From the NCBI RefSeq assembly GCF_048403405.1, contig NZ_CP183129.1: DNA of 64,000 bases. One strand, given 5' to 3'. Made by a program: the position numbers and the translations under genes. Within the stretch, counting starts at the first letter, position 1. Each line of letters begins with the position of its first letter. A model generated the notes under the pieces. It did not search any database and had not been told where the DNA came from. It saw nothing but the letters and a program-made list of their open reading frames with translations. Shown here one piece after another: positions 8,395 to 59,789 of the stretch. This DNA comes from Escherichia coli (lineage in GTDB: Bacteria; Pseudomonadota; Gammaproteobacteria; Enterobacterales; Enterobacteriaceae).

Positions 8395-9660
8395 TTAATC
8401 GCTCAGCGCATCCTGCAAAATTTTCATTGCCGCATCGAATTGCGCATCCGGGATGGTCAGCGGATACAGGAAACGAATCACGTTGCCGTATGCGCCACAG
8501 GTCAGTAGAAGCAGCCCCTGCGCCAGCGCGCGTTGCTGGATTTTCTGTGCAATCGCCGCTGACGGCTCGCCCGTTTGCGGATCGTTAAACTCTGCCGCAA
8601 TCATAGACCCCAGACCGCGTACCGCCGCGATGGCCGGAACGCTTTCTTTGGCATCAATCAACGTGTTTGTCAGGCGCTGGCCCAGTTGATTCGCGCGTTC
8701 ACAGAGTGATTCTTTGTCGATAATGTTGAGCACAGCGTGCGCGGCAGCCACCGCCAGCGGGTTCCCGGCGTAGGTACCACCCAACCCGCCCGGCGCGGGC
8801 GCGTCCATAATATTCGCGTTACCGACCACGCCCGAAAGCGGCATCCCGCCCGCGAGGCTTTTCGCCATCGTCATTAAGTCCGGCTTATCGGCGTAGTGAT
8901 CCATGGCAAACAGTTTACCGGTACGCGCAAAGCCGCTTTGCACTTCATCGGCAATCATCACAATGCCGTGCTCGTCGCACAGGCGGCGAATGGCGGCAAC
9001 CAGCTCTGTTGGTGCAACGTTGAAACCGCCTTCGCCCTGCACCGGTTCGAAAATAATCGCCGCCACCTGCTTCGCTTCAATGTCCGATTTAAACAAGCGT
9101 TCGATGGCGTCGAGAGAGTCCTGCGTTGAAACGCCATGTAAATCTGACGGATAAGGTACGTGATATACCGAACCGGGGAACGGGCCGAAGCCGATTTTGT
9201 ACGGCGCGACCTTTCCGGTCAGCGCCATGGTCATATATGTACGACCGTGGAAGCCGCCGCTAAACGCAATCACGCCAGGGCGTCCGGTATGGGCGCGGGC
9301 GATTTTCACCGCGTTCTCCACCGCTTCCGCACCGGTGGTGAAGAACGCAGTTTTAGCCTGCCCGCTCACCGGGGCAAGGGCGTTAATTTTCTCCGCCAGG
9401 GTGACGTAGCTTTCGTACGGCACAATCTGATACGCCGTGTGGGTAAACTGTTGCAATTGCTGCTCCACCGCCGCGACCAGATCAGGGTGGCGATGCCCGG
9501 TATTCAGCACCGCAATGCCTGCGGCGAAATCGATGTATTCGTTGCCCTCTACATCCTTCAGCGTGGCGTTTTCTGCCGACTGGGCGAAGAAGTTACACAT
9601 CACGCCAACCCCGCGTGGGGTAGCAGAAAGACGACGCTGATGGAATTCATTGTTGCTCAT
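8395..9660 (-). CDS. puuE: 4-aminobutyrate aminotransferase (PLP-dependent)
   Basis: 421-aa class-III aminotransferase ORF; synteny in puu cluster. Confidence 0.88.
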   Translation of the reverse strand: MSNNEFHQRRLSATPRGVGVMCNFFAQSAENATLKDVEGNEYIDFAAGIAVLNTGHRHPDLVAAVEQQLQQFTHTAYQIVPYESYVTLAEKINALAPVSGQAKTAFFTTGAEAVENAVKIARAHTGRPGVIAFSGGFHGRTYMTMALTGKVAPYKIGFGPFPGSVYHVPYPSDLHGVSTQDSLDAIERLFKSDIEAKQVAAIIFEPVQGEGGFNVAPTELVAAIRRLCDEHGIVMIADEVQSGFARTGKLFAMDHYADKPDLMTMAKSLAGGMPLSGVVGNANIMDAPAPGGLGGTYAGNPLAVAAAHAVLNIIDKESLCERANQLGQRLTNTLIDAKESVPAIAAVRGLGSMIAAEFNDPQTGEPSAAIAQKIQQRALAQGLLLLTCGAYGNVIRFLYPLTIPDAQFDAAMKILQDALSD

Positions 9661-9697
9661 GTTTCACACCTTTTGACTCTTCACTGTTAATCGGAAA

Positions 9698-10978
9698 TTA
9701 AACGCCCAGACGATCGCGCAGGCTGTAATAAGCCGCGCCCATCGCGGTAAACGGAACGCGCAGCGTGCGCCCGCCGGGGAACGGGTAATGCGGCAGATTG
9801 GCGAAGGCGTCGAAGCGCTCGGCGTCACCGCGCAGCAGTTCAGCAATCAAACGCCCGGCGAGGTGGGTACAGGTGACGCCGTGGCCGCTGTAGCCCTGCA
9901 TGTAGTAGATGTTGGTATCGAGGCGACCAAACTGCGGCATGCGTGACAGGGTCAGCAGGAAGTTGCCCGTCCAGCGGTAATCAATTTTCACGCCCTTCAG
10001 TTGCGGGAAGGTTTTCAGCAGTTTCGGCACCACAAGGCGCTCAACATCGTCCGGGTCGCGTGCGCCGTAGACCACGCCGCCGCCGTACAGCAGGCGGTTA
10101 TCGGCAGTCAGACGGTAGTAATCAAGCAGATAGTTACAGTCTTCAACGCAGTAGTTTTTCGGGATCAGCGAACGGGCTAAATCATCGGAAAGCCGCTCGG
10201 TGGTGATCACCTGCGTGCCGCACGGCATGCTGCGTTTCGCCAGTTCCGGTTCCACTTTATCGCCCAGATACGCATTCCCGGCGACAATCACGTATTTCGC
10301 CGTCACCTGACCTTTGGCAGTTCGCACAACGGCTGGCGTGGTGTGCTGGATCTGCGTCACGGCAGAAAGTTCATACACGCGCCCGCCGTTCAGGCGGATG
10401 GCGTCCGCTTCGCCAATGGCGAGGTTTAGCGGATGAATATGCCCACCGCTGTGATCCAGCAGCGCACCAGTGTAGCGATCGCTGGCGACCTCGCGGCGAA
10501 TAGCGTTGGCGTCCAGCAGCTCCAGCTGTTTATTGCCGTAGCGTTCCCAGTTCTCTTTCTGCTCTTCGAGTGTGGCGAGCTGTTTATCATTCATCGCCAC
10601 AAACAGGCCGCCGGGGCGGTAGTCGCAGTCAATCTGATAACGTTTGATACGTTCGCGGATGATCTCGCCGCCTTCGAACATCATGCTGCCGAGCATACGG
10701 GCGGTGTCCATGCCGTAGTTTTTTTCAATGACGTCGATGTCGCGGCTGTAGGAGTTCACAAGCTGCCCGCCGTTGCGTCCGCTTGCGCCGAAGCCGATGC
10801 GTGAGGCTTCAAGAACCACCACGTCAAAGCCCGCTTCCGCCAGATGCAGCGCGGAAGAAAGCCCGGTATAGCCGCCGCCGACCACGCAAACATCGCAGGA
10901 AATCGACTCATTCAGCGTGTCGAATGGTGCGTATTTATTCGCACTGGCGGCGTAATAACTGCTGGTATGTTCGGTCAT
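9698..10978 (-). CDS. puuB: Gamma-glutamylputrescine oxidase (FAD-dependent)
   Basis: 426-aa ORF with N-terminal FAD-binding GxGxxG (VVGGGYTG); synteny. Confidence 0.88.
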   Translation of the reverse strand: MTEHTSSYYAASANKYAPFDTLNESISCDVCVVGGGYTGLSSALHLAEAGFDVVVLEASRIGFGASGRNGGQLVNSYSRDIDVIEKNYGMDTARMLGSMMFEGGEIIRERIKRYQIDCDYRPGGLFVAMNDKQLATLEEQKENWERYGNKQLELLDANAIRREVASDRYTGALLDHSGGHIHPLNLAIGEADAIRLNGGRVYELSAVTQIQHTTPAVVRTAKGQVTAKYVIVAGNAYLGDKVEPELAKRSMPCGTQVITTERLSDDLARSLIPKNYCVEDCNYLLDYYRLTADNRLLYGGGVVYGARDPDDVERLVVPKLLKTFPQLKGVKIDYRWTGNFLLTLSRMPQFGRLDTNIYYMQGYSGHGVTCTHLAGRLIAELLRGDAERFDAFANLPHYPFPGGRTLRVPFTAMGAAYYSLRDRLGV

Positions 10979-10979
10979 T

Positions 10980-12467
10980 TCAGGCCTCCAGGCTTATCCA
11001 GATAGTTTTCAGTTCGGTGAATTTTTCAAGGGCGTGCAGGGATTTGTCGCGACCGTTGCCGCTCTGCTTATAGCCGCCAAACGGCACGGTCATATCGCCG
11101 TCGTTGTAGTTATTGACAAAGACGGAACCGGCTTTCAGGCGACGGCTCATGCGGTGCGCGCGGGAGAGGTCGCGCGTCCATACTGCCGCGCCAAGTCCGT
11201 ACTGGCTGTCGTTAGCAAGCTGTAGCGCCTGTTCTTCTGATGTGAAACGCGTGACCACCAGCACTGGACCGAAAATCTCTTCGCGGCTTAAGGACGCATC
11301 CGGGTCTACATCCACAAAGATCGTCGGGCCGATGGCGGCAGCCAGCTCGGCGTTACGGCCATCCAGCAGCAGTTGCCCTTTGCTTTCGCCTTCACGAATA
11401 AAGCTATGGACCGAGTCGGCGTGGGCGCAGTCGATTAAGGTGCCCATGGTGGTTGCGGGATCAAGTGGATGGCCCGGCTGCCAGTTTTGCGCCTGCTGTT
11501 TTAACAGGTCTAAGAATTCATCGGCGATGCTCTCTTCCAGCAACAGGCGCGTTCCGGCGATACACACCTGCCCCTGGTTGTAGAAAATGCCCGCAGCGGT
11601 CGCGCTCGCCGCTTTTTGCAAATCCGGACAGTCAGCGAAAACGATGTTGGCGCTTTTGCCGCCCGCTTCCAGCCAGACGCGTTTCATGTTGCTGTCGCCT
11701 GCATCTTTCAGCAGCTGTTTCCCGGTGCGGGTTGAGCCAGTAAAGGCGATGGCATCGATATCGTTATGACGCGACAGCGCCTGCCCCGCTTCATGACCAA
11801 AACCCGTCACCACGTTCAACACGCCATCCGGCAGCCCCGCTTCTTTCGCCAGCCCCGCGAGACGAATCGCACTGAGCGGTGATTTTTCAGACGGTTTTAG
11901 GATCACGCTGTTTCCCGCCGCCAGCGCCGGGCCGAGTTTCCAGCAAGTCAGCAGCAGCGGGAAGTTCCACGGCACGATGGCGGCAATCACGCCGACCGGT
12001 TCACGCACGATCATCGCCAGCTCATGGCTACTGGTGGTCGCCACTTCGCCATACACTTTGTCGATCGCTTCGGCGTACCAGCGAATGGCGCGCGCCGCGC
12101 CGGGAATATCATCACGCAGACTGTGACGAATCGGTTTGCCGGTGTCGAGCGTTTCCAGCAGCGCCAGTTCTTCAGCGTTAGCTTCCATTAAATCGGCGAG
12201 TTTATTCAGCACCGCTTTACGCTTAGCCGGAGAAGAGAGTGACCAGTCGCCACGTTCAAACACGCCGCGTGCTGCGCTCACCGCACGGTCAATATCGACG
12301 CTCTTGCCGCGGGCAATATTCGCCAGCGGTGCCTGGGTGACCGGATCAACGGTTTCAAAAGTTTCATTTTCCGCCGCAGCAGTATATTCACCGTTAATAA
12401 ATAAGCGGGTTTCAATGGCGAGACTTAACGCTTTATCCTGCCAGTAAGCCAGATGATGAAAATTCAT
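10980..12467 (-). CDS. puuC: Gamma-glutamyl-gamma-aminobutyraldehyde dehydrogenase (NAD-dependent aldehyde dehydrogenase)
   Basis: Aldehyde dehydrogenase family ORF with catalytic Cys region; start refined to ATG at 12465-12467 (495 aa), preceded by GGAG. Confidence 0.85.
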   Translation of the reverse strand: MNFHHLAYWQDKALSLAIETRLFINGEYTAAAENETFETVDPVTQAPLANIARGKSVDIDRAVSAARGVFERGDWSLSSPAKRKAVLNKLADLMEANAEELALLETLDTGKPIRHSLRDDIPGAARAIRWYAEAIDKVYGEVATTSSHELAMIVREPVGVIAAIVPWNFPLLLTCWKLGPALAAGNSVILKPSEKSPLSAIRLAGLAKEAGLPDGVLNVVTGFGHEAGQALSRHNDIDAIAFTGSTRTGKQLLKDAGDSNMKRVWLEAGGKSANIVFADCPDLQKAASATAAGIFYNQGQVCIAGTRLLLEESIADEFLDLLKQQAQNWQPGHPLDPATTMGTLIDCAHADSVHSFIREGESKGQLLLDGRNAELAAAIGPTIFVDVDPDASLSREEIFGPVLVVTRFTSEEQALQLANDSQYGLGAAVWTRDLSRAHRMSRRLKAGSVFVNNYNDGDMTVPFGGYKQSGNGRDKSLHALEKFTELKTIWISLEA

Positions 12468-12616
12468 TATGACTCCTGTTTCACGTCTATCAGATATATG
12501 CAGTTTGTGAACGTCAGGGCGCAGAGATCCCCGGGCCGTATGCCCGTTTATTTCTGGCGACATTCTTTATGGATTGCCGGGCGCATTGCGCTTACCCGGC
12601 TTACAGAACAAAAAGA

Positions 12617-13174
12617 TTAAAACGTGGTGGGCGTATGGGCGCTGATAATTCGGCAAATACCTGCCGACGTATTACTGAAACTGTGCGGGATGCCGGTATT
12701 AATGGCATAACTTTGCCCCGCGACGAGGTGGTAATCCTGACCATTAATCGTCAGAACAATTTCACCTTCCAGTACAGTGCCTATTTCCTCACCCTGATGC
12801 TTAATTCTTTCCCCAGTGGTTGTGCCCGGCTGGTAAGTTTCAAAGATCATCGCCAGCGTGCGATTCGGGTTACCGTTATGAACCAGCTTCATTGACACAC
12901 CCTGACTGCCCATCTCAATTAAGTCGTCCTGATTAATGACGACCTGCGGCTCATCAGGTTTTTCCGGCTCGGAAAAGAATTCCGAGAGTGACAGACCATA
13001 CACCTTCAGCAGCTTTTGCAGCGTACTGATGGCAGGGCTGACTTTATCTTGTTCTATCGTACTGATAGCACTGTGAGTCAGCCCGGAGAGTTCGGCGGCA
13101 CGACGTTGTGAAAGCCCCTGCTGCTGGCGGATTTCCGACAAGCGTTTTCCTGGCGCCAGTCCCTCATCACTCAT
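12617..13174 (-). CDS. puuR: HTH-XRE/cupin transcriptional repressor of puu genes
   Basis: 185-aa ORF with N-terminal HTH and C-terminal cupin fold; synteny. Confidence 0.87.
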   Translation of the reverse strand: MSDEGLAPGKRLSEIRQQQGLSQRRAAELSGLTHSAISTIEQDKVSPAISTLQKLLKVYGLSLSEFFSEPEKPDEPQVVINQDDLIEMGSQGVSMKLVHNGNPNRTLAMIFETYQPGTTTGERIKHQGEEIGTVLEGEIVLTINGQDYHLVAGQSYAINTGIPHSFSNTSAGICRIISAHTPTTF

Positions 13175-13200
13175 ATTTGCATTTCCTTAAACTGTAGTGG

Positions 13201-13965
13201 TCAGAGTCGCTGTTTTTCAGCGATATGGTGCTGACAAGCGGTGATAAAGCCCTCGAACAATATACGCGAAAGCGCGTACTCGCTACTGTTCCATTCCGGG
13301 TGCCACTGTACGCCCAGCGCAAAAGGATGATTGATGACGCTAACCGCCTCAACTAAGCCATCCGGCGAGCGAGCTTCAACACGCAACCGTGGGCTAACGA
13401 CCTTCGCCCCTTGTCCATGCAGAGAGTTTACCCAAAAGTTGCTACATTCAGGTAACAACGCAGACAGTAATCCCCCCTCTTCAACCTGAACTTCATGCGA
13501 CGGCGCATATTGCTGCTCCACCGGCAGTTCGGGATCTTCCCGATGTTCCAGCAATTCAGGCTGTTCGCACAGCTTGCGATGCAACGAACCACCGGTTGCC
13601 ACCACCAGTTCCTGTAAACCCCGGCAGATGGCGAAAATGGGGATGCGCCTTTCGAGTGCGGCATTAATTAACGCCATGCTCAGAAGATCACGCCCGGGAT
13701 CGGCGTCAGGCTCATCGCCGTTTTCACCATATAGGTGCGGCTGCACATTGCTGGGACTACCAGGAAGATAAATGCCATCGAGTTTCGGCAAAAGTTGTTC
13801 AAGTAATGACGGTTCCGCCAGCGCATGTGGCAGCGCAATTGGCAAGCCGCCTGCGTGGATGATGGCATTCAGGTACTTTTCTTGCAGAGTCTGGGTCGCA
13901 TGACCCTTAAGCCTGTTCCTGCACATTACGACACCGATAACCGGATTGTTCATTATATTTTCCAT
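13201..13965 (-). CDS. puuD: Gamma-glutamyl-gamma-aminobutyrate hydrolase (class-I glutamine amidotransferase-like)
   Basis: ORF track 13201..13977; start refined to ATG at 13963-13965 (254 aa). Confidence 0.87.
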   Translation of the reverse strand: MENIMNNPVIGVVMCRNRLKGHATQTLQEKYLNAIIHAGGLPIALPHALAEPSLLEQLLPKLDGIYLPGSPSNVQPHLYGENGDEPDADPGRDLLSMALINAALERRIPIFAICRGLQELVVATGGSLHRKLCEQPELLEHREDPELPVEQQYAPSHEVQVEEGGLLSALLPECSNFWVNSLHGQGAKVVSPRLRVEARSPDGLVEAVSVINHPFALGVQWHPEWNSSEYALSRILFEGFITACQHHIAEKQRL

Positions 13966-14033
13966 GCTCAATCTCACAAAGTGGACTAAATTATCGCCAT
14001 TACTGCGCTTTAAATGACCTTTATGTTCAATAT

Positions 14034-14048
14034 TTTTTCAATCTAGCA
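14034..14048. promoter_or_regulatory. Candidate PuuR operator in puuD-puuA divergent region
   Basis: TGTTCAATATTTTTT (rc AAAAAATATTGAACA) resembles the AT-rich PuuR recognition motif as I recall it; sits in the puuA/puuD divergent promoter region. Confidence 0.4.
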
Positions 14049-14118
14049 GTGGGTTTTCATTTTTGCAAACTCAATTTAACATTTGACAAACATTTAGTTT
14101 GCATACAGATTCGAATGG

Positions 14119-14133
14119 TGGTCATTATATTTT
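14119..14133. promoter_or_regulatory. Candidate PuuR operator in puuD-puuA divergent region (second copy)
   Basis: TGGTCATTATATTTT (rc AAAATATAATGACCA), a second related copy of the same motif just upstream of puuA. Confidence 0.4.
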
Positions 14134-14176
14134 ACGCTTTGATAACGAGCGGAAAACAAACCAAAGGCGAAGAATC

Positions 14177-15595
14177 ATGGAAACCAATATCGTTGAAGTA
14201 GAGAACTTTGTTCAGCAGTCAGAAGAGAGGCGGGGTAGCGCCTTTACGCAGGAAGTGAAACGCTACCTGGAGCGCTACCCGAATACGCAATATGTTGATG
14301 TTTTACTTACCGATTTGAATGGTTGCTTCCGTGGAAAACGTATTCCTGTTTCAAGCCTGAAGAAGCTCGAGAAAGGGTGTTATTTCCCGGCCTCGGTATT
14401 TGCAATGGATATTCTGGGTAATGTAGTAGAAGAAGCGGGCCTGGGTCAGGAAATGGGCGAGCCGGATCGTACCTGTGTTCCTGTTCTCGGTTCCTTAACC
14501 CCTTCTGCCGCCGATCCAGAGTTTATAGGTCAGATGCTCCTGACCATGGTCGATGAAGATGGCGCTCCCTTTGACGTTGAGCCGCGGAACGTTCTTAACC
14601 GCCTGTGGCAGCAGCTGCGCCAGCGCGGATTGTTCCCGGTCGTAGCGGTAGAGCTGGAGTTCTATTTACTGGATCGCCAGCGCGACGCTGAAGGGTATCT
14701 GCAACCGCCCTGCGCGCCCGGCACCGATGACCGCAATACACAAAGCCAGGTTTACTCCGTTGATAATCTCAACCACTTCGCCGACGTGCTCAATGATATT
14801 GATGAACTGGCGCAGTTACAGCTGATTCCGGCAGATGGAGCGGTCGCTGAGGCCTCGCCAGGTCAGTTTGAAATCAATCTTTACCATACCGATAACGTGC
14901 TGGAAGCTTGCGATGATGCGCTGGCACTAAAACGCCTGGTGCGTCTGATGGCAGAAAAGCATAAGATGCACGCCACTTTTATGGCGAAGCCGTATGAAGA
15001 GCACGCGGGCAGCGGGATGCATATCCATATCAGTATGCAAAATAACCGTGGCGAGAACGTGCTTTCTGACGCGGAAGGCGAAGATTCGCCGCTGCTGAAA
15101 AAGATGCTTGCCGGGATGATTGACCTGATGCCGTCATCAATGGCGTTGCTGGCACCAAACGTGAACTCGTATCGCCGCTTCCAGCCAGGTATGTATGTAC
15201 CGACGCAGGCGTCGTGGGGCCATAACAACCGCACCGTCGCCCTGCGTATTCCGTGCGGCGATCGCCATAATCACCGCGTGGAATATCGCGTGGCGGGTGC
15301 CGATGCCAACCCGTATCTGGTGATGGCGGTGATTTTTGCCGGTATTTTGCATGGCCTTGATAACGAACTGCCATTACAGGAAGAAGTCGAAGGTAACGGG
15401 CTGGAACAGGAAGGCTTACCCTTCCCGATTCGTCAGAGCGATGCCCTGGGTGAGTTTATCGAGAATGATCACCTGCGCCGCTATTTAGGCGAACGCTTCT
15501 GCCATGTCTATCACGCCTGTAAAAATGATGAGCTGTTGCAGTTTGAGCGCCTCATCACAGAAACAGAAATTGAGTGGATGTTGAAAAACGCGTAA
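14177..15595 (+). CDS. puuA: Gamma-glutamylputrescine synthetase (glutamine synthetase family)
   Basis: ORF track 14099..15595; start refined to ATG 14177 (472 aa, METNIVEV...), preceded by AGGCGAAG; GS catalytic-domain motifs. Confidence 0.88.
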   Translation: METNIVEVENFVQQSEERRGSAFTQEVKRYLERYPNTQYVDVLLTDLNGCFRGKRIPVSSLKKLEKGCYFPASVFAMDILGNVVEEAGLGQEMGEPDRTCVPVLGSLTPSAADPEFIGQMLLTMVDEDGAPFDVEPRNVLNRLWQQLRQRGLFPVVAVELEFYLLDRQRDAEGYLQPPCAPGTDDRNTQSQVYSVDNLNHFADVLNDIDELAQLQLIPADGAVAEASPGQFEINLYHTDNVLEACDDALALKRLVRLMAEKHKMHATFMAKPYEEHAGSGMHIHISMQNNRGENVLSDAEGEDSPLLKKMLAGMIDLMPSSMALLAPNVNSYRRFQPGMYVPTQASWGHNNRTVALRIPCGDRHNHRVEYRVAGADANPYLVMAVIFAGILHGLDNELPLQEEVEGNGLEQEGLPFPIRQSDALGEFIENDHLRRYLGERFCHVYHACKNDELLQFERLITETEIEWMLKNA

Positions 15596-15897
15596 TACCC
15601 CTTGCGGGGTTGTTTCATCGGCCTGAGCGGAGCCAGGCCTGACATTTGCTGGTAATCCAGACATTTTCCGGATGTCGCGTTATGGAGCGCAGGCGGCAAC
15701 GGGCTTCCGTTAACGATTAAGACTGTGACGAGGAAATGAGATGATGCCGATGATTAAATCCCCGCATGGCGAGGGAGGCTGCGTATGCGCCCCTCCTGCG
15801 ACTGACTGGACTCCGCCCCCTTTGCTTCCCTTGCTAAACAGGTTTGATTTCAGGTCGACACGACCGCGAACCTTATTACGCAGGGGAGGCAGCAATT

Positions 15898-17283
15898 ATG
15901 GCTATTAATTCACCACTAACTATTGCTGCGCAATCTGGCAAAACCCGTCTGCGAAAATCACTGAAATTGTGGCAGGTGGTGATGATGGGTCTGGCCTATC
16001 TCACGCCGATGACCGTATTTGATACTTTTGGTATTGTCTCCGGCATTAGCGACGGTCACGTTCCGGCGTCCTATTTGCTGGCGCTGGCGGGCGTGCTGTT
16101 TACCGCTATCAGCTACGGCAAACTGGTTCGCCAGTTTCCGGAAGCCGGTTCGGCCTATACCTACGCGCAAAAGTCGATTAACCCGCACGTCGGATTTATG
16201 GTCGGCTGGTCATCACTGCTGGATTATCTCTTTTTGCCAATGATCAACGTTTTATTGGCGAAAATCTATCTCTCCGCCCTCTTCCCGGAAGTGCCGCCGT
16301 GGGTGTGGGTGGTAACCTTCGTCGCCATTTTAACCGCCGCGAATCTGAAGAGCGTCAACCTGGTCGCTAACTTCAATACCCTGTTTGTACTGGTGCAAAT
16401 CTCCATCATGGTGGTGTTTATCTTCCTGGTGGTTCAGGGACTGCATAAAGGAGAAGGCGTTGGCACAGTCTGGTCACTTCAGCCGTTTATCAGCGAGAAC
16501 GCGCACCTGATCCCGATTATTACCGGGGCGACGATTGTCTGTTTCTCCTTCCTCGGTTTCGATGCGGTGACCACGCTTTCGGAAGAGACGCCGGACGCCG
16601 CACGCGTGATCCCAAAAGCCATCTTCCTGACGGCGGTATACGGCGGCGTTATCTTTATCGCTGCGTCGTTCTTTATGCAGCTGTTCTTTCCCGATATCAG
16701 CCGCTTTAAAGACCCGGACGCCGCACTGCCTGAAATTGCGCTGTACGTCGGCGGCAAGCTCTTCCAGTCGATTTTCCTCTGCACCACGTTTGTGAACACG
16801 TTAGCGTCTGGCCTGGCTTCACATGCCAGCGTGTCGCGTCTGCTGTATGTGATGGGGCGTGACAATGTGTTTCCGGAGCGCGTGTTTGGCTATGTGCACC
16901 CGAAATGGCGCACGCCAGCGCTGAACGTCATTATGGTCGGGATTGTTGCGCTGTCGGCGCTGTTCTTTGATTTAGTCACCGCGACAGCATTGATTAACTT
17001 CGGTGCTCTGGTGGCATTTACCTTCGTAAATCTGTCGGTGTTTAATCATTTCTGGCGGCGTAAAGGAATGAATAAAAGCTGGAAGGATCACTTTCACTAT
17101 TTGCTGATGCCGCTGGTTGGCGCGCTGACGGTGGGTGTGCTGTGGGTTAACCTCGAGTCAACGTCACTGACACTCGGTCTGGTATGGGCTTCGTTAGGCG
17201 GCGCATATTTGTGGTATCTGATCCGCCGCTATCGCAAAGTGCCGTTGTATGATGGTGACAGAACGCCGGTGAGCGAAACGTAA
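15898..17283 (+). CDS. puuP: Putrescine importer (APC-family amino acid/polyamine permease)
   Basis: ORF track 15844..17283; start refined to ATG 15898 (461 aa); 12-TM permease. Confidence 0.87.
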
Positions 17284-53911: not shown

Positions 53912-54670
53912 ATGCATTACCAGCCAAAACAAGATTTACTCAATGATCGCATTATCCTGGTGACGGGAGCCAGCGATGGTATTGGCCGTGAAGCCGCGAT
54001 GACGTATGCACGCTATGGTGCGACAGTGATTCTGTTGGGCCGTAATGAAGAAAAATTACGTCAGGTAGCCAGCCACATAAACGAAGAAACTGGACGTCAG
54101 CCACAGTGGTTTATTCTCGATTTGCTGACCTGCACGTCCGAAGATTGCCAACAACTGGCACAGCGCATTGCCGTTAATTATCCGCGTCTGGATGGTGTTT
54201 TGCATAATGCCGGATTGCTCGGCGATGTTTGCCCAATGAGCGAACAAAATCCGCAGGTCTGGCAGGACGTCATGCAGGTCAACGTTAATGCCACCTTTAT
54301 GCTCACCCAGGCACTGCTTCCTTTATTACTCAAATCGGACGCCGGTTCACTGGTCTTTACTTCATCAAGCGTTGGACGTCAGGGACGAGCCAACTGGGGC
54401 GCATATGCAGCGTCGAAATTTGCCACCGAAGGGATGATGCAGGTACTGGCCGATGAATATCAGCAGCGCCTGCGCGTCAACTGCATTAACCCAGGCGGTA
54501 CGCGCACCGCAATGCGGGCCAGCGCCTTCCCGACCGAAGATCCACAGAAACTTAAAACACCCGCTGATATCATGCCGCTCTACCTCTGGCTGATGGGCGA
54601 TGACAGCCGCCGTAAAACCGGCATGACCTTTGACGCCCAACCGGGCCGTAAACCAGGAATTTCCCAATGA
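53912..54670 (+). CDS. yciK: Short-chain dehydrogenase/reductase
   Basis: 252-aa SDR ORF with TGASDGIG cofactor-binding motif; overlaps btuR start. Confidence 0.88.
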   Translation: MHYQPKQDLLNDRIILVTGASDGIGREAAMTYARYGATVILLGRNEEKLRQVASHINEETGRQPQWFILDLLTCTSEDCQQLAQRIAVNYPRLDGVLHNAGLLGDVCPMSEQNPQVWQDVMQVNVNATFMLTQALLPLLLKSDAGSLVFTSSSVGRQGRANWGAYAASKFATEGMMQVLADEYQQRLRVNCINPGGTRTAMRASAFPTEDPQKLKTPADIMPLYLWLMGDDSRRKTGMTFDAQPGRKPGISQ

Positions 54671-55257
54671 GTGATGAACGCTACCAACAGCGTCAGCAGC
54701 GAGTGAAAGAAAAAGTCGATGCTCGTGTGGCCCAGGCCCAGGATGAACGCGGTATTATCATCGTTTTTACCGGCAATGGAAAAGGCAAAACCACCGCGGC
54801 ATTTGGTACGGCAACTCGTGCAGTAGGCCATGGCAAAAAAGTGGGTATCGTGCAGTTTATTAAAGGCACCTGGCCTAATGGCGAGCGCAATCTACTGGAG
54901 CCACATGGCGTTGAGTTTCAGGTGATGGCAACGGGCTTTACCTGGGATACACAAAATCGCGAATCTGATACCGCGGCCTGCCGTGAAGTCTGGCAACATG
55001 CCAAACGAATGCTGGCCGATCCTTCACTGGATATGGTTTTGCTCGATGAGCTGACTTATATGGTGGCGTATGATTATTTGCCACTGGAAGAAGTGGTGAA
55101 GGCGTTAAATGAACGTCCACATCAGCAAACCGTCATTATTACGGGTCGTGGTTGTCATCGGGATATACTTGAACTGGCGGATACGGTAAGTGAATTACGC
55201 CCCGTGAAACATGCGTTTGATGCCGGTGTAAAAGCGCAGATAGGGATTGACTACTAA
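54667..55257 (+). CDS. btuR: Cob(I)yrinic acid a,c-diamide adenosyltransferase
   Basis: 196-aa ORF with P-loop GNGKGKTTAA, CobA family. Confidence 0.9.
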   Translation: MSDERYQQRQQRVKEKVDARVAQAQDERGIIIVFTGNGKGKTTAAFGTATRAVGHGKKVGIVQFIKGTWPNGERNLLEPHGVEFQVMATGFTWDTQNRESDTAACREVWQHAKRMLADPSLDMVLLDELTYMVAYDYLPLEEVVKALNERPHQQTVIITGRGCHRDILELADTVSELRPVKHAFDAGVKAQIGIDY

Positions 55258-55260
55258 GTG

Positions 55261-55294
55261 AAAGCACCTCAAAAGAAGCCTCTTGAGGTGCTTT
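55261..55294. terminator. Stem-loop between convergent btuR and the inserted two-gene cassette
   Basis: 12-bp inverted repeat AAAGCACCTCAA / TTGAGGTGCTTT immediately after the btuR stop. Confidence 0.5.
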
Positions 55295-55308
55295 AATCAT
55301 GATTATAT

Positions 55309-55617
55309 TCAAGCGGCAATAGCGAAATTCAGAATACGTGTAATCTCATTCAAATGTCCCGGATATGCTTCATGATTCTCAGCGTCAACATCTTCAATAA
55401 ATAATATCAGTTCAGTAATTAACGCATTAGCATCGTCATAATTTATCCCGGCTAACTCTGGCGAAGTTTCAGTACCATAGTTAATCGTCAGGTTGTTCAT
55501 AACTGTGAGGATATGGATAAAATATTTATGACAAACATTACATGTGGTTTTATTACCCAAAGTATTATACAGCATATCAAGTAATGCCAATATTCTACGG
55601 TTTTGCACATCGTTCAT
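55309..55617 (-). CDS. Hypothetical small acidic cytoplasmic protein (102 aa), function unknown
   Basis: ORF with ATG start 6 nt after an AGGAGG Shine-Dalgarno that overlaps the stop of the upstream lipoprotein gene; AT-rich; no family recognised. Confidence 0.6.
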   Translation of the reverse strand: MNDVQNRRILALLDMLYNTLGNKTTCNVCHKYFIHILTVMNNLTINYGTETSPELAGINYDDANALITELILFIEDVDAENHEAYPGHLNEITRILNFAIAA

Positions 55618-55627
55618 AAAAAGCCTC

Positions 55628-56629
55628 CTATAACATTATTCCGCTGGCAATAAGTAATTTTGCCAGCCCCTCAGACGCCTTTAACCCACTAATGACCTGT
55701 GCGCGTAATATTTCATTTAATCTTTTTTGTTCAGCTGCCGTGCGTGTTTTATTAACGTATAAGCTTTTTAGATAATCACCCTTATCTATAAAGGCATTTA
55801 AAGCCTCAATCGCAGGCATGGCAGGTGCCGATGCCTGTAGTCTGGTTTCATTCACATTGATTACTGAACTTAGAAACTCCTTCCTGTTTTTCAGAGTGTT
55901 AAACTCTGTATTCTTAGAGTTTTTAGATGCTGTATTATAATAAAACATATTATCATGCACATTCGCAAAGGTATAATTTTCAATCTTATTGCTTTTTGTA
56001 TAAATATCATTGCGCAAAACCGCCATGTTCTTTATAAGTCTTACCCAGTTTTCATCTGCCGTTTTGCCTATTTTTCCAGAATTGACTTTAATTATATATA
56101 ACTCATTGAAATAATTTACCAAATCTTTAACCGCTGCTGCAGATTGAGCTAAATCTTTGCTATGTGAAACACCAAGTAGTGTTTGTGCGTTGTTTGCGTG
56201 ATCCAGAGCCTGTTTAAGTAATGCCACTTGCTGACTTTCCGTAGTTGCCATATCCTTTGTCAGAAGTTCCACATAAGCGCTCATGCTATTAATGACTTCC
56301 ATTGAAGCCAGTAATTTTTCTTTCTCGAAAGGGACTAATTGTACTTGTTTTGTATTTGGCCCTGAACGCTGGCATAATTTTCCGCCATTCCCATCACCGC
56401 CTATATCAATGGTATAATCAGGTCGCAATGCACAATCCGGATTAGTCGCGTAGAAATTAACAAGGAAGTTTTCACGAGAAGCATAGTATTGTTTAAAGAA
56501 ACTTGCATTCGCCGCTACTGCTTTGTTACCCGCAGTAATAACAGTTTCAGCTTGTTCGTTTTTCAATGCTTCAGTTGCACAACCTGAAAGCATTAACAGC
56601 GATAGAAATATTCCACTATATCTAATCAT
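55628..56629 (-). CDS. Hypothetical lipoprotein (333 aa), function unknown
   Basis: ATG start with SD GAGGTG; signal peptide plus lipobox LMLSGC (Cys17); N/K-rich, AT-rich coding sequence; no family recognised. Confidence 0.65.
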   Translation of the reverse strand: MIRYSGIFLSLLMLSGCATEALKNEQAETVITAGNKAVAANASFFKQYYASRENFLVNFYATNPDCALRPDYTIDIGGDGNGGKLCQRSGPNTKQVQLVPFEKEKLLASMEVINSMSAYVELLTKDMATTESQQVALLKQALDHANNAQTLLGVSHSKDLAQSAAAVKDLVNYFNELYIIKVNSGKIGKTADENWVRLIKNMAVLRNDIYTKSNKIENYTFANVHDNMFYYNTASKNSKNTEFNTLKNRKEFLSSVINVNETRLQASAPAMPAIEALNAFIDKGDYLKSLYVNKTRTAAEQKRLNEILRAQVISGLKASEGLAKLLIASGIML

Positions 56630-56798
56630 AACCCACCTCTTGACGTTGAGTTTATCTCAGATAATTAAATAGTAATGTGGCTATTTCCGGGTATTATTCA
56701 TAAGCAAGTATGAAATTAAATTAAAATACTGCGACTATTTATCATGCTTCAAATGAAGAAAAGGCCCCGCAGGGCCTTTATTTTATACTTATCTTAAA

Positions 56799-57674
56799 TT
56801 AACCGTTATTATTACGTCCGCCAGAACGACGACCGCCGCTCACCTGACTGTGACGCTTAACCGCTCGACGAATCTGATTCGCCTTCATACGACGACGGTC
56901 TTTTTCTACAGCGACTTTAGAGCTGGTTTCTGGCGGTAGCTCCACCAGTTCGCGCAGATAGTTAGTCTGGGCGAGGTCCAGCTCCGTCCAGCCACCGCGT
57001 GGCAGACCTTTCGGCAGTGGGATATCACCGTAACGAACACGGATCAGGCGGCTTACCTGCACACCAACCGCTTCCCAAAGACGACGAACTTCACGGTTAC
57101 GGCCTTCGGTCAGAGTTACGTTGTACCACTGGTTGATCCCTTCGCCGCCGCTGAACTTGATGGTTTTAAAGGCTGCCGGACCATCTTCCAGCTGCACGCC
57201 ACGACTCAAATCACGCAGTTTCGCGTCGTCAACCTGACCAAATACACGCACGGCATATTCACGTTCAACTTCACGGCTTGGATGCATTAAACGGTTTGCC
57301 AGTTCACCGTCGGTGGTGAACAGCAGCAGACCACAGGTGTTAACGTCCAGACGACCTACGGCAATCCAGCGTGCGCCACGCAGCTTTGGCAGACGGTCAA
57401 ACACCGTTGGACGCCCTTCCGGATCGTTACGGGTACACAACTCACCTTCCGGTTTGTAATAGGCCAGAACGCGACAAATTTGTTCAGCGGACTCACGTAC
57501 CGAAATCAGGTGACCATCGATACGGATTTTCAATCCAGGTGTAACTTCAACGCGATCGCCGAGTTTAGCAATTTTGCCATCAACACTCACACGACCGGCT
57601 TCAATAATAGATTCGATTTCACGGCGAGAACCGTGGCCGGCACGCGCCAGCACTTTCTGTAGCTTTTCGCTCAT
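56799..57674 (-). CDS. rluB: 23S rRNA pseudouridine(2605) synthase
   Basis: 291-aa ORF with S4 domain and RsuA-family catalytic domain, Arg/Gly-rich C-terminal tail. Confidence 0.9.
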
Positions 57675-57884: not shown

Positions 57885-59789
57885 TTACCAGCCACCGCCG
57901 CCTCCGCCACCTGCACCGCCACCAGCACCACCACCGGAATAGCTACGCCCCAACAAACTGGTATAGGCCCCGCAACTCAGGTGCGTCTGTAATGAGAATA
58001 AAACGCCACTACGGGCAATTTCCGGGGCGCGAACAGCCGCTGTGAGTGATGGGGTGATACGTGCTGCCCATTCTCTGCCAAGGTTTGCCGAGACCGCCCA
58101 ACCTAACAACGCGTAATCCAGTTTCCGTGTTTCCCCTTTCCGCCGCCGCCCACTGTGTGTTGCTGCCTCTTTACGCGCAAGATAGTTAACGATAGCTTCA
58201 CCGTGGACATAACGTTGCTGCCCAGTTTGGGTAAACTTTGGCAGAAAAATATACCCCAAGCCAGTGAGATAACCGGTCAGGACAACAGCGCTAAAATAAC
58301 CCGCTGGCATATACCAGTAAAAGAATACATCTCCGACATTGATATAGAGAGAATAAAAGGCCACGCCTGAACAAATCAGCGGTAAAAACAAAGTGATGAT
58401 TACACGATTAACGCAAGGCTTGTCATCATCGCGGGCAAACACAAGCTCAAGGGAACAAAATAAAAAAGGAAGAAGCCAGCAGATCATAATAAACATATCG
58501 CCCACCAGACTCATTCCTGCCCAGCCTACGGGACTCAGGTTACCGTAGAGAATGACCGCTAATATCGCCATTCCCCCCCATTGCAAAAACGCATCAGGTC
58601 GGTAAAACGAAGACTTTTTACGCGGCAGATAAAATTTCTGCATCCGTAAAAATGCCCTGCGTAAGACTCTGTTGCGTCTCCCCGTAAGAACGACCTTATC
58701 GCCTTTACGAAATAACGCTTCCAGTAATAACTGCTCTGCGGGCAGTAATACCGCATTATTTCTGGTCGCGCCTTCATTAACACGAATCAGGATTTGCTGG
58801 TTCTTATCATACTGATCTTCCAGATGAATTTTGCCTTTCACAATCAGATTTACGATATCGGCACAAAAACCTTTATCGTCGTAAACCAGCTTCGCATCGA
58901 GACGTAACATGCCGGGCGTGTAATCTGGCGGAATGACATCGGTTTCAATCACATCTACCGGCGTAAATTGCGGCCTGCGCTTCCAGAGATATAACCATCC
59001 ACAAACCAGGAATAGACACGGAAACCAAATTAACAACGATGACGTGGAGGGTAAAAGAAGATGGCTGAAAATATTCGTCGTTTGTGGAGCCGGGGCATTG
59101 CTAAGTAAAGCGTGAGGCCAGCGGTAGAGTACCGTGAAATCTTCACGATAAAACGGATCGCGGGATTCAATTCTTCCGTCCTCAAGGATGCGGCCATTTC
59201 GATATGTGTCGCCCTCTTCTCCAGTAAAGAGATCGATTTCGCTAAATGGATTACCCGCGATATCAGGGAACTTGAGTGAAAATCGGGTCTTATAGATTTC
59301 AAACGGCCAGTGGTTACCGGTCACGTTCCAGATTAACAGATCTGAATCTCCCTCACGCAGGAAAGCATTTTTAACCTGATAATGAATTTGATAATGATAG
59401 TCGCCTTGAGGCAAGAAACGTTGTTTATCGCCCACGACGATACTCATTAAACCGATATGCCAGTCAAGATGCCAGGGTTCAGGAACACCATCACGGGTGA
59501 CGCCAACAATATGATAGTTCAGCAGTGCAGCGTCCCCATCAGGCTGCATCCAGAGTCGTGGTAAATCACGATAAAATCCGTGCTTAATCTGCTGATTTCG
59601 CGCCTGAAAATGAATATTTTCTTTGATGTCGAGCCCCCCATCCGGTTGCAGAGTGGCTTCAACATCAAAGAGCGAGATCCCTTCTTCATAAAAAGGGATC
59701 TCCGTGTTTTTCGGATAACTCAACGAAGAGAAAAAAGCCCAACTATCAACAGCAAAATGCAGCGATATATCCCTGCCATAGTCTTCCAT
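57885..59789 (-). CDS. yciQ: DUF2207-family inner-membrane protein
   Basis: 634-aa ORF with multiple TM segments and a Gly/Ala-rich C-terminal tail; synteny. Confidence 0.85.
   Translation of the reverse strand: MEDYGRDISLHFAVDSWAFFSSLSYPKNTEIPFYEEGISLFDVEATLQPDGGLDIKENIHFQARNQQIKHGFYRDLPRLWMQPDGDAALLNYHIVGVTRDGVPEPWHLDWHIGLMSIVVGDKQRFLPQGDYHYQIHYQVKNAFLREGDSDLLIWNVTGNHWPFEIYKTRFSLKFPDIAGNPFSEIDLFTGEEGDTYRNGRILEDGRIESRDPFYREDFTVLYRWPHALLSNAPAPQTTNIFSHLLLPSTSSLLIWFPCLFLVCGWLYLWKRRPQFTPVDVIETDVIPPDYTPGMLRLDAKLVYDDKGFCADIVNLIVKGKIHLEDQYDKNQQILIRVNEGATRNNAVLLPAEQLLLEALFRKGDKVVLTGRRNRVLRRAFLRMQKFYLPRKKSSFYRPDAFLQWGGMAILAVILYGNLSPVGWAGMSLVGDMFIMICWLLPFLFCSLELVFARDDDKPCVNRVIITLFLPLICSGVAFYSLYINVGDVFFYWYMPAGYFSAVVLTGYLTGLGYIFLPKFTQTGQQRYVHGEAIVNYLARKEAATHSGRRRKGETRKLDYALLGWAVSANLGREWAARITPSLTAAVRAPEIARSGVLFSLQTHLSCGAYTSLLGRSYSGGGAGGGAGGGGGGGW

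Follow-up and report, generated by a model that had tools for sequence, protein, structure and literature searches.

Between the core genes btuR (cobO) and rluB, the 64-kb stretch of Escherichia coli DNA analysed here (contig NZ_CP183129.1; hereafter the window, meaning the whole stretch) carries a cassette of two genes, one encoding a predicted lipoprotein of 333 amino acids (aa) with a lipobox and the other an acidic protein of 102 aa. This arrangement had been proposed from the sequence in the original prediction, and both open reading frames (ORFs) are present. On the comparisons described below, the lipoprotein founds, for E. coli, a lipoprotein family not described before. We tentatively read the pair as a self-contained two-gene operon whose products may work at the cell envelope to exclude, or defend against, invaders such as phage or, possibly, toxins acting in the periplasm. 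We give this reading clearly less than an even chance, and favour it because the lipoprotein looks like an exported, non-enzymatic binder with a variable loop, and because the cassette is accessory and AT-rich, exists as old alleles and has relatives in a prophage and in defence islands. The link of the pair to defence is associative. The protein families are undescribed, while the kind of system, accessory envelope lipoproteins of mobile origin, is already known.

The lipoprotein family and its small partner

The N-terminus of the prelipoprotein reads MIRYSGIFLSLLMLSG followed by Cys, residues 1–16 forming the predicted signal peptide, and MIRYSGIFLSLLM-LSGC17 conforms to the lipobox consensus [LVI][ASTVI][GAS]C. 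Cys17 is encoded at 56579–56581, and the residues at positions +2 and +3 are Ala-Thr. In E. coli, Asp at +2 makes a lipoprotein avoid Lol-dependent sorting to the outer membrane; since the +2 residue here is Ala, not Asp, the protein is predicted to be sorted to the outer membrane. The mature lipoprotein would have 317 residues (35 kDa; isoelectric point (pI) 8.9), and the signal peptide is the sole hydrophobic segment of the product.

As had been predicted, neither protein could be placed in a recognized family. Pfam, NCBIfam, PADLOC and PHROGs gave no match for the lipoprotein or for the small protein, and PDB sequences gave none for the latter; nor did these four libraries yield anything of use for the remote family members and their partners. 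PDB sequence searches with profiles of both proteins returned coiled-coil noise only, and Foldseek with an AlphaFold2 (AF2) model of the lipoprotein likewise gave no established family. In PADLOC-DB v2.0.0 nothing significant was found for both proteins, their alleles, the remote family members or the partners (one chance-level match, E 0.015), and the literature, searched for the WP accessions and for the names of the flanking genes, yielded no description of either protein. A word-indexed search covering 5.8 billion proteins gave 26 and 16 matches, all of them relatives in Escherichia and Citrobacter, and with a profile of the diverse family it returned close relatives only. An exhaustive hidden Markov model search of 1.84 billion representative proteins, in turn, gave 56 members of the lipoprotein family, about half of them full-length (324–357 aa) and alignable over most of their length. 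Among the named sources of the relatives are Buttiauxella, Klebsiella, Raoultella, Rahnella, Pantoea, Methylomonas, a Sphingosinicellaceae bacterium and a Chlorobiaceae metagenome-assembled genome, and all those of named source are annotated as ‘hypothetical’.

In an alignment of 30 family sequences only C17, C66, C86 and Y119 are invariant. The invariant C66 and C86 would fit a periplasmic disulfide, and the pattern of conservation fits no catalytic centre. An AF2 model built from this alignment (predicted local distance difference test score 75; predicted template modelling score 0.67) has eight helices, two of them 45–50 residues long, and a beta-hairpin in the segment containing C66 and C86, with predicted strands at residues 73–77 and 93–97. 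An earlier model from 13 close sequences (score 53 in the first of these measures) was too poor and was discarded. As modelled, the fold is a generic helical bundle, non-enzymatic and with no catalytic motif. The hairpin and its loop (residues 76–96) form the most variable stretch among the sub-alleles of the A type: at residues 76–90, 12 of the 15 alignment columns vary within that group, and the Cys-Cys segment also carries a 7-residue indel between alleles.

Beyond family members, a Foldseek search of AFDB50 returned uncharacterized proteins of ~330 aa labelled imelysin-like, NarX/PilJ-like four-helix-bundle sensor, DUF3829 or DUF4142 (E 1e-10 to 1e-3; TM, the template modelling score, 0.55–0.78); a structure search of BFVD with the lipoprotein model returned nothing. 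These neighbours count in favour of a role outside conflict, in which the lipoprotein would be an accessory envelope protein for ligand or protein binding, envelope homeostasis, metal or iron handling or host interaction, and the small protein its cytoplasmic co-factor or regulator. For a serum-resistance or surface-antigen role of this kind TraT, Bor and Iss serve as the model. We regard such a function as possible without being probable, and as nearly as likely as envelope defence. Imelysin-like proteins, four-helix-bundle periplasmic sensor domains (NarX/PilJ, 4HB_MCP) and DUF3829/YiiG lipoproteins rank among the known systems nearest to the family. None of the Foldseek labels, however, was upheld by a sequence test. 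None of the 30 family members matches Peptidase_M75 (PF09375), DUF3829 or any other Pfam family, and the family has no conserved HxxE-type motif, its invariant residues beyond the lipobox Cys being Cys, Cys and Tyr only; the similarity to the Imelysin-like/Peptidase_M75 proteins (EfeO, IrpA) is one of Foldseek labels only. When the family profile was compared with K-12 YiiG, a DUF3829 protein, hhalign gave a probability of 2.9% and aligned the lipobox alone.

The small protein (11.5 kDa; pI 4.6) has no signal peptide and no membrane segment, and C26, C29, H30 and H88 (CxxCH...H) are invariant across its Escherichia and Citrobacter versions. Reading CxxCH as the mark of a c-type cytochrome was rejected, as there is no signal peptide and the motif is confined to the Escherichia/Citrobacter clade, being missing in the remote partners. 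A Tat (twin-arginine translocation) reading of its RR motif was rejected too, the motif not being conserved in the remote partners. The partner in a Buttiauxella prophage is homologous to the small protein of the window (29% identity; BLASTP E 1e-7). Remote partners (96–107 aa) resemble it only in position, size, an N-terminal helix and one Cys, and their homology rests on these features because hhalign of close versus remote small partners was not significant.

The original prediction had seen a conflict module in the two proteins, possibly of the toxin/immunity type. The broader idea gains from distant relatives that lie in conflict-type contexts (see below), but its toxin/immunity form found no direct support, there being no toxin or enzyme domain and a generic helical bundle instead. 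In that form the toxin would be the lipoprotein, whether it is delivered or acts on its own cell, with the small acidic protein as the cytoplasmic antidote. The tight coupling of a basic 35-kDa protein to an acidic 11.5-kDa one and the co-inheritance of the two genes across genera would suit such a pair. A precedent exists in the SitA lipoprotein toxins of Myxococcus with their SitI immunity proteins, where, as here, a lipoprotein gene is followed by the gene for a small cytoplasmic protein, on mobile DNA. Unlike SitA/SitI, however, the pair in the window has no nuclease or toxin domain, no polymorphic C-terminus and no homology to that system. We consider a toxin/immunity pair distinctly unlikely, because no toxin or enzyme domain was found by sequence or by fold, because the lipoprotein is homologous end to end within the family, without the C-terminal domain swapping of polymorphic toxins, and because the predicted compartments differ (a Sec-exported lipoprotein against a partner with neither signal peptide nor membrane segment). 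In addition, we know of no outer-membrane-exchange route in E. coli by which such a toxin could be delivered.

Distribution, alleles and relatives of the pair

The cassette is present in 1234 of 5426 complete E. coli genomes (~23%), those of sequence type 131 (ST131) included, and absent from the other 4192 (~77%), as it is from K-12; it is thus accessory and not conserved core, in line with what had been predicted. Genomes without the cassette show the K-12-type empty site, making the locus binary, and in E. coli the cassette is always single-copy at the btuR–rluB site, bar two extra places. The allele of the window (at least 90% nucleotide identity) accounts for 424 of the 1234 carriers, and the remaining 810, ST131 among them, have alleles at 60–80% nucleotide identity. 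There are at least three protein classes, one of 333 aa and two of 340 aa, at ~65% identity, and recombinants occur too.

Citrobacter, E. albertii and E. whittamii have the same pair, again flanked by rluB and cobO; the two Escherichia species were the only matches among 100,044 species-representative genomes. In E. whittamii the cassette has 95.5% nucleotide identity to that of the window, against 89–95% for the flanks, and in Citrobacter cassette and flanks are both strongly diverged; across the copies of these three taxa, the cassette has diverged to a degree similar to that of its flanking genes. No integrase, insertion sequence (IS), target duplication, or terminal or junction repeat was found at the cassette. 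Because it occupies the same site in other species, diverges as its flanks do and shows no mobility scars, the simplest reading is that the pair is an old resident of the rluB–btuR site that has been patchily lost and swapped by homologous recombination, and that a recent insertion is unlikely. The original prediction had called the cassette a horizontally acquired islet. The atypical base composition and the absence from close relatives agree with that, but the shared site and the lack of scars speak against it, and horizontal acquisition appears doubtful.

Between the window and the allele of strain S9, the lipoprotein genes differ at a proportion of synonymous sites (pS) of 0.56, equivalent to a synonymous divergence (dS) of ~1.0, which is saturated, with a ratio of non-synonymous to synonymous divergence (dN/dS) of 0.24. 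For the small gene the non-synonymous proportion (pN) is 0.14 against a pS of 0.81, and five A-type sequences gave pN/pS of 0.02 to 0.13 by region. Since non-synonymous divergence is far below saturated synonymous divergence, both ORFs are, judged by their substitution patterns, real genes under purifying selection. This leaves little room for a decaying remnant without current function, an old acquisition that is being lost, which we regard as very improbable. Decay would agree with the lack of the cassette in 77% of E. coli genomes, with the split copy and the IS insertions seen in some strains, and with the low GC (guanine plus cytosine) content, which may mean silencing by H-NS; it would not agree with intact frames and dN/dS of 0.1–0.25 over saturated synonymous divergence in several genera, nor with a highly conserved upstream region.

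In E. albertii NBRC 107761, the type strain of the species (locus L025, 2898–3919), the lipoprotein gene is split into ORFs of 244 and 96 aa beside an intact 102-aa partner, and this copy of the lipoprotein gene appears to be pseudogenized. A split lipoprotein gene beside an intact small gene counts against the toxin/immunity pair, although it would be compatible with either model. IS elements interrupt or flank the cassette in NZ_LR898874.1 and NZ_CP029420.1, one of which has ISKpn26 and IS1A and the other IS1. In E. coli GPEC genomes one cassette feature is annotated as ‘amino acid kinase family protein’ instead of ‘hypothetical protein’, which is probably a misannotation. Three plasmid matches in PLSDB (CP054249.1, CP054253.1 and NZ_CP134663.1) proved to be mislabelled chromosome or chromosome fragments, and an apparent third allele at 33% identity was an artefact of CP054249.1, a record that includes trp, rluB and cobO and has many frameshifts; no family member was found on true plasmids.

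Deeply diverged alleles at a single locus and a patchy distribution, together with the predicted make-up of the lipoprotein as a non-enzymatic binder in the periplasm, held by a disulfide and bearing a variable loop, would also suit an orphan immunity lipoprotein, kept without its cognate toxin and acting against periplasm-acting toxins such as effectors of the type VI secretion system (T6SS), colicins or those of contact-dependent inhibition (CDI). Lipoproteins are common among the proteins that give immunity to periplasmic effectors. Nevertheless, we think this unlikely: no toxin, T6SS, CDI or colicin gene adjoins the pair in the loci examined, 317 mature residues are many for an immunity protein, and the conserved cytoplasmic partner would be left without a role.

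At every gammaproteobacterial locus examined, and on a contig resembling Chlorobiaceae (green sulfur bacteria), the lipoprotein gene is followed 6–45 nucleotides (nt) downstream by a gene for a protein of ~100 aa (96–107 aa). This pairing was seen in Citrobacter, Buttiauxella, Klebsiella, Raoultella, Pantoea, two metagenomic contigs and the Chlorobiaceae-like contig. Two remote members have another downstream gene, encoding either a 269-aa protein with membrane segments or a 773-aa protein. All copies examined from genomes of ~54% GC have a GC content of 36–42%.

Several of these relatives lie in surroundings of a conflict type. The relative in Buttiauxella agrestis belongs to a P2-like prophage, where gpS and gpV flank it; P2 has three known moron regions, of which this interval is one (PMC6823313). 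Among the P2-like moron loci (the ORF30 slot between S and V, old/tin and Z/fun; PMC6823313, PMC9122126) it thus falls exactly into the S–V slot, and like P2 morons it is low in GC; unlike them, the E. coli cassette lies outside any prophage. What PMC9122126 tested as an anti-phage hotspot is the region next to cos, and not the S–V slot. In Klebsiella variicola the relative belongs to an island beside proBA that also has an integrase gene, and 543 bp separate the relative from HamB, part of a complete Hachiman system (HamA E 1e-135; HamB E 9e-279). The Raoultella relative shares its island with PDC-S15 (E 2e-52), AlpA, an IS and two integrases, and the island also contains a weak match to AbiC. 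A remote member (L028; locus span 9035–17035) lies 5 kb from a cluster of Trypco2, AAA_5 (MoxR-like) and FGE-sulfatase genes, which we take to resemble nucleoside triphosphate-dependent conflict systems; here a gene for the uncharacterized 773-aa protein stands downstream, before the Trypco2 cluster, and FecI, FecR and TonB-receptor genes stand upstream.

The FecI/FecR/TonB-receptor genes, found 2–7 kb away in both Pantoea and L028, argue for the non-conflict envelope role introduced above. So do the stable site between housekeeping genes in several genera, the purifying selection and the presence of the pair in lineages of extraintestinal pathogenic E. coli such as ST131. The AT-richness, the patchiness and the siting in islands or a prophage elsewhere, however, would suit dispensable conflict cargo better.

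Two further ORFs were noticed at these loci. A 72-aa ORF is conserved 250–350 bp upstream of the lipoprotein gene in Klebsiella and Raoultella (L019, 9434–9652; L022, 9533–9751; L023, 315–533); it has no family match and is absent from the E. coli cassette. The Hachiman island of K. variicola also encodes a 753-aa protein (L019, 5656–7917, minus strand) with no match in Pfam, PADLOC, NCBIfam or PHROGs, which could be another uncharacterized cargo gene of the island.

Layout, composition and control of the locus

The features of the locus are collected in Table 1. In K-12, btuR and rluB are adjacent, as the original prediction had it: 39 bp separate them, holding a small hairpin unrelated to those of the window. 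The AT-richness of the cassette against a backbone of ~51% GC was likewise borne out, the windowed GC fraction being 0.31–0.41 across 55300–56800 as compared with 0.50–0.57 in the flanks. The gene pair itself has a GC fraction of 0.35–0.37 against 0.51 for the whole window, and at third codon positions 0.32 against 0.46–0.54 for comparison.

Table 1. Features of the btuR–rluB interval, with positions counted from the first letter of the window
Feature	Position	Strand	Basis or remark
cobO/btuR	54667–55257	+	core gene flanking the cassette
GC-rich inverted repeat (I2)	55261–55294	.	between btuR stop and small-gene stop
Small acidic-protein gene, 102 aa	55309–55617	-	ORF list
Gene junction	55615–55630	-	read directly from the sequence
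Lipoprotein gene, 333 aa	55628–56629	-	ORF list
Cys-Cys/beta-hairpin segment, codons 66–100	56330–56434	-	alignments and AF2 secondary structure
Cassette promoter/5′ leader region (putative)	56630–56759	-	per-segment identities, alignment
Perfect palindrome TTCATA-n6-TATGAA	56697–56714	.	alignment; ~70 nt upstream of lipoprotein ATG
Hairpin read as rluB intrinsic terminator	56760–56779	-	terminator scan and fold
rluB	56799–57674	-	core gene flanking the cassette

At the junction of the two genes, the stop codon TAG of the lipoprotein gene (55628–55630) shares bases with the Shine-Dalgarno sequence AGGAGG (55624–55629) of the small gene, whose ATG (55615–55617) begins 6 nt past it; relatives show a comparable spacing, of about 6–25 nt. 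The coupling through a stop/Shine-Dalgarno overlap that had been proposed is therefore there to be read in the sequence, and because of this overlap the layout implies that the lipoprotein and the small protein would be made by coupled translation.

Hairpins flanking the cassette had been taken as its own. Both hairpins are real, but they read as terminators of neighbouring genes and not as element ends. The GC-rich inverted repeat next to btuR has fold energies of -19.3 kcal/mol on the plus strand and -22.3 on the minus strand (z -4.6 and -5.3), and reads as a bidirectional terminator of the convergent btuR and cassette transcripts. The hairpin next to rluB has a stem of 8 bp with 5 GC pairs, followed on the rluB strand by the U-tract UUUUCUUCAUUU, and folds at -16 kcal/mol (z -2.3). 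It is kept in all alleles and in Citrobacter, and parts rluB from the promoter region of the cassette. An Rfam scan of 55000–57000 found no RNA family.

The putative promoter and leader region is 96–98% identical among alleles A, B and E. albertii, which exceeds the identity of the flanking core genes, and contains the lipoprotein Shine-Dalgarno sequence GAGGTGGG; a promoter scan of its minus strand gave no confident sigma-70 promoter. More widely, the 169-bp spacer between rluB and the lipoprotein gene and the first 60 codons of the latter (together 56450–56798) are 96–100% conserved, as compared with ~70% identity in the remainder of the same alleles, and the spacer surpasses both rluB and btuR in conservation, also in the comparison with E. 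albertii. Two causes suggest themselves: the regulatory and signal-peptide region may be under strong constraint, or there may be a recombination breakpoint close to codon 60. Within the spacer, the palindrome is kept in all Escherichia alleles, and in Citrobacter it has 1–2 changes; it is the sole such site in the window, where 0.18 would be expected by chance. It looks like a candidate operator for a dimeric regulator, and a conserved operator-like palindrome, in implying specific regulation, is one more point for the non-conflict envelope role.

Two smaller observations concern the surroundings of the cassette. A 16-nt near-identical direct repeat, AACCGT(C/T)ATTATTACG, brackets it (55128–55143 in btuR and 56801–56816 in the 3′ end of rluB); this is probably chance, because btuR and rluB are both intact in strains with the empty site. 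In the genome closest to the window (TUM14771, 99.9% identity) yciQ (locus L001, 5686–7580) is annotated as frameshifted, and in the window the yciQ ORF (57885–59789) is intact.

Possible exclusion or defence at the cell envelope

If the pair does serve in exclusion or defence, its action may be pictured as follows. The 333-aa product would be exported by Sec and, by analogy with other lipoproteins, lipidated at Cys17 through Lgt, LspA and Lnt, and Lol would carry it to the outer membrane, Ala being the residue at +2. In the periplasm a Cys66–Cys86 disulfide would staple the beta-hairpin onto the long-helix bundle, and the hairpin with its loop, to judge from the variability between sub-alleles, may form a recognition surface. 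That surface might bind an envelope-crossing foreign component or its receptor and so block entry. The small Cys/His protein might stay in the cytoplasm as a partner made in fixed ratio, for instance to regulate, to help in assembly or to block a second step. At the rluB–btuR site of Escherichia and Citrobacter the pair is patchily kept, and it persists in the form of at least two deeply diverged alleles.

A number of results weigh against an exclusion or defence function. Neither protein has homology to a known defence or exclusion protein in PADLOC, PHROGs, Pfam, NCBIfam or PDB. Selection is purifying throughout, and positive selection was sought in the hairpin and not found (pN/pS 0.13 among five A-type sequences). 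The Escherichia/Citrobacter pair has housekeeping neighbours and no other defence gene nearby; the btuR–rluB site is not named among the E. coli defence hotspots in PMC10121019, and it could not be upheld as a hotspot for multiple cargoes either, being found empty or occupied by the cassette only. Elsewhere, a conflict-type context was seen in only three loci with long context (the P2 slot, the Hachiman island and the PDC-S15 island), and the relatives in Pantoea and on the Chlorobiaceae-like contig lie in ordinary contexts that are not defence islands. Finally, tblastn of three family members against 50,697 phage records of INPHARED gave no match, nor did four pattern-seeded scans of IMG/VR (A1, P0052, P0053 and P0060), and because the family is absent from these phage databases the prophage case stands as a single instance.

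Known entry blockers offer a partial likeness. The outer-membrane exclusion lipoproteins (Llp of T5, Cor of phi80 and N15, TraT of the F plasmid and Bor of lambda) have roughly 60–230 residues. Like them, the lipoprotein of the window is accessory, AT-rich and predicted to be sorted by Lol to the outer membrane, with relatives in a prophage moron slot and in defence islands. Unlike them, it is far larger, with 317 mature residues, comes with a small cytoplasmic partner and shows no sequence or profile similarity to any of them (NCBIfam, Pfam and PHROGs were negative). It differs from the phage-borne ones further in that its family is absent from the phage databases searched. Ltp of the Streptococcus thermophilus phage TP-J34, a helical lipoprotein of ~140 aa, blocks DNA injection in a Gram-positive host and sets a precedent for a helical entry blocker; the lipoprotein of the window is likewise predicted to be all-helical, non-enzymatic and membrane-tethered. 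There is, however, no homology between the two as judged by the library and PDB sequence searches, and Ltp has no partner gene.

Taken at its fullest, the envelope reading would make the pair an undescribed defence or exclusion system, widespread but rare, in which a disulfide-stapled helical-bundle lipoprotein and a ~100-aa cytoplasmic Cys protein are kept as ancient specificity alleles at one site of E. coli, ST131 included; we regard this as possible but doubtful. Should it prove protective against phage or toxins, the pair would bring a new protein family to the few envelope-level, entry-blocking defences of Gram-negative bacteria, which are far less explored than the cytoplasmic ones that target nucleic acids. 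Since about 23% of complete E. coli genomes have it, the pandemic ST131 among them, it could affect host range in phage therapy. Natural presence and absence at one site, with K-12 empty at 39 bp, and two or three deeply diverged alleles make the question readily testable. Even if the pair is not a defence system, it represents an undescribed lipoprotein family, marked by Cys, Cys and Tyr and usually accompanied by a small partner, that occurs in Proteobacteria and in at least one lineage of Chlorobiaceae.

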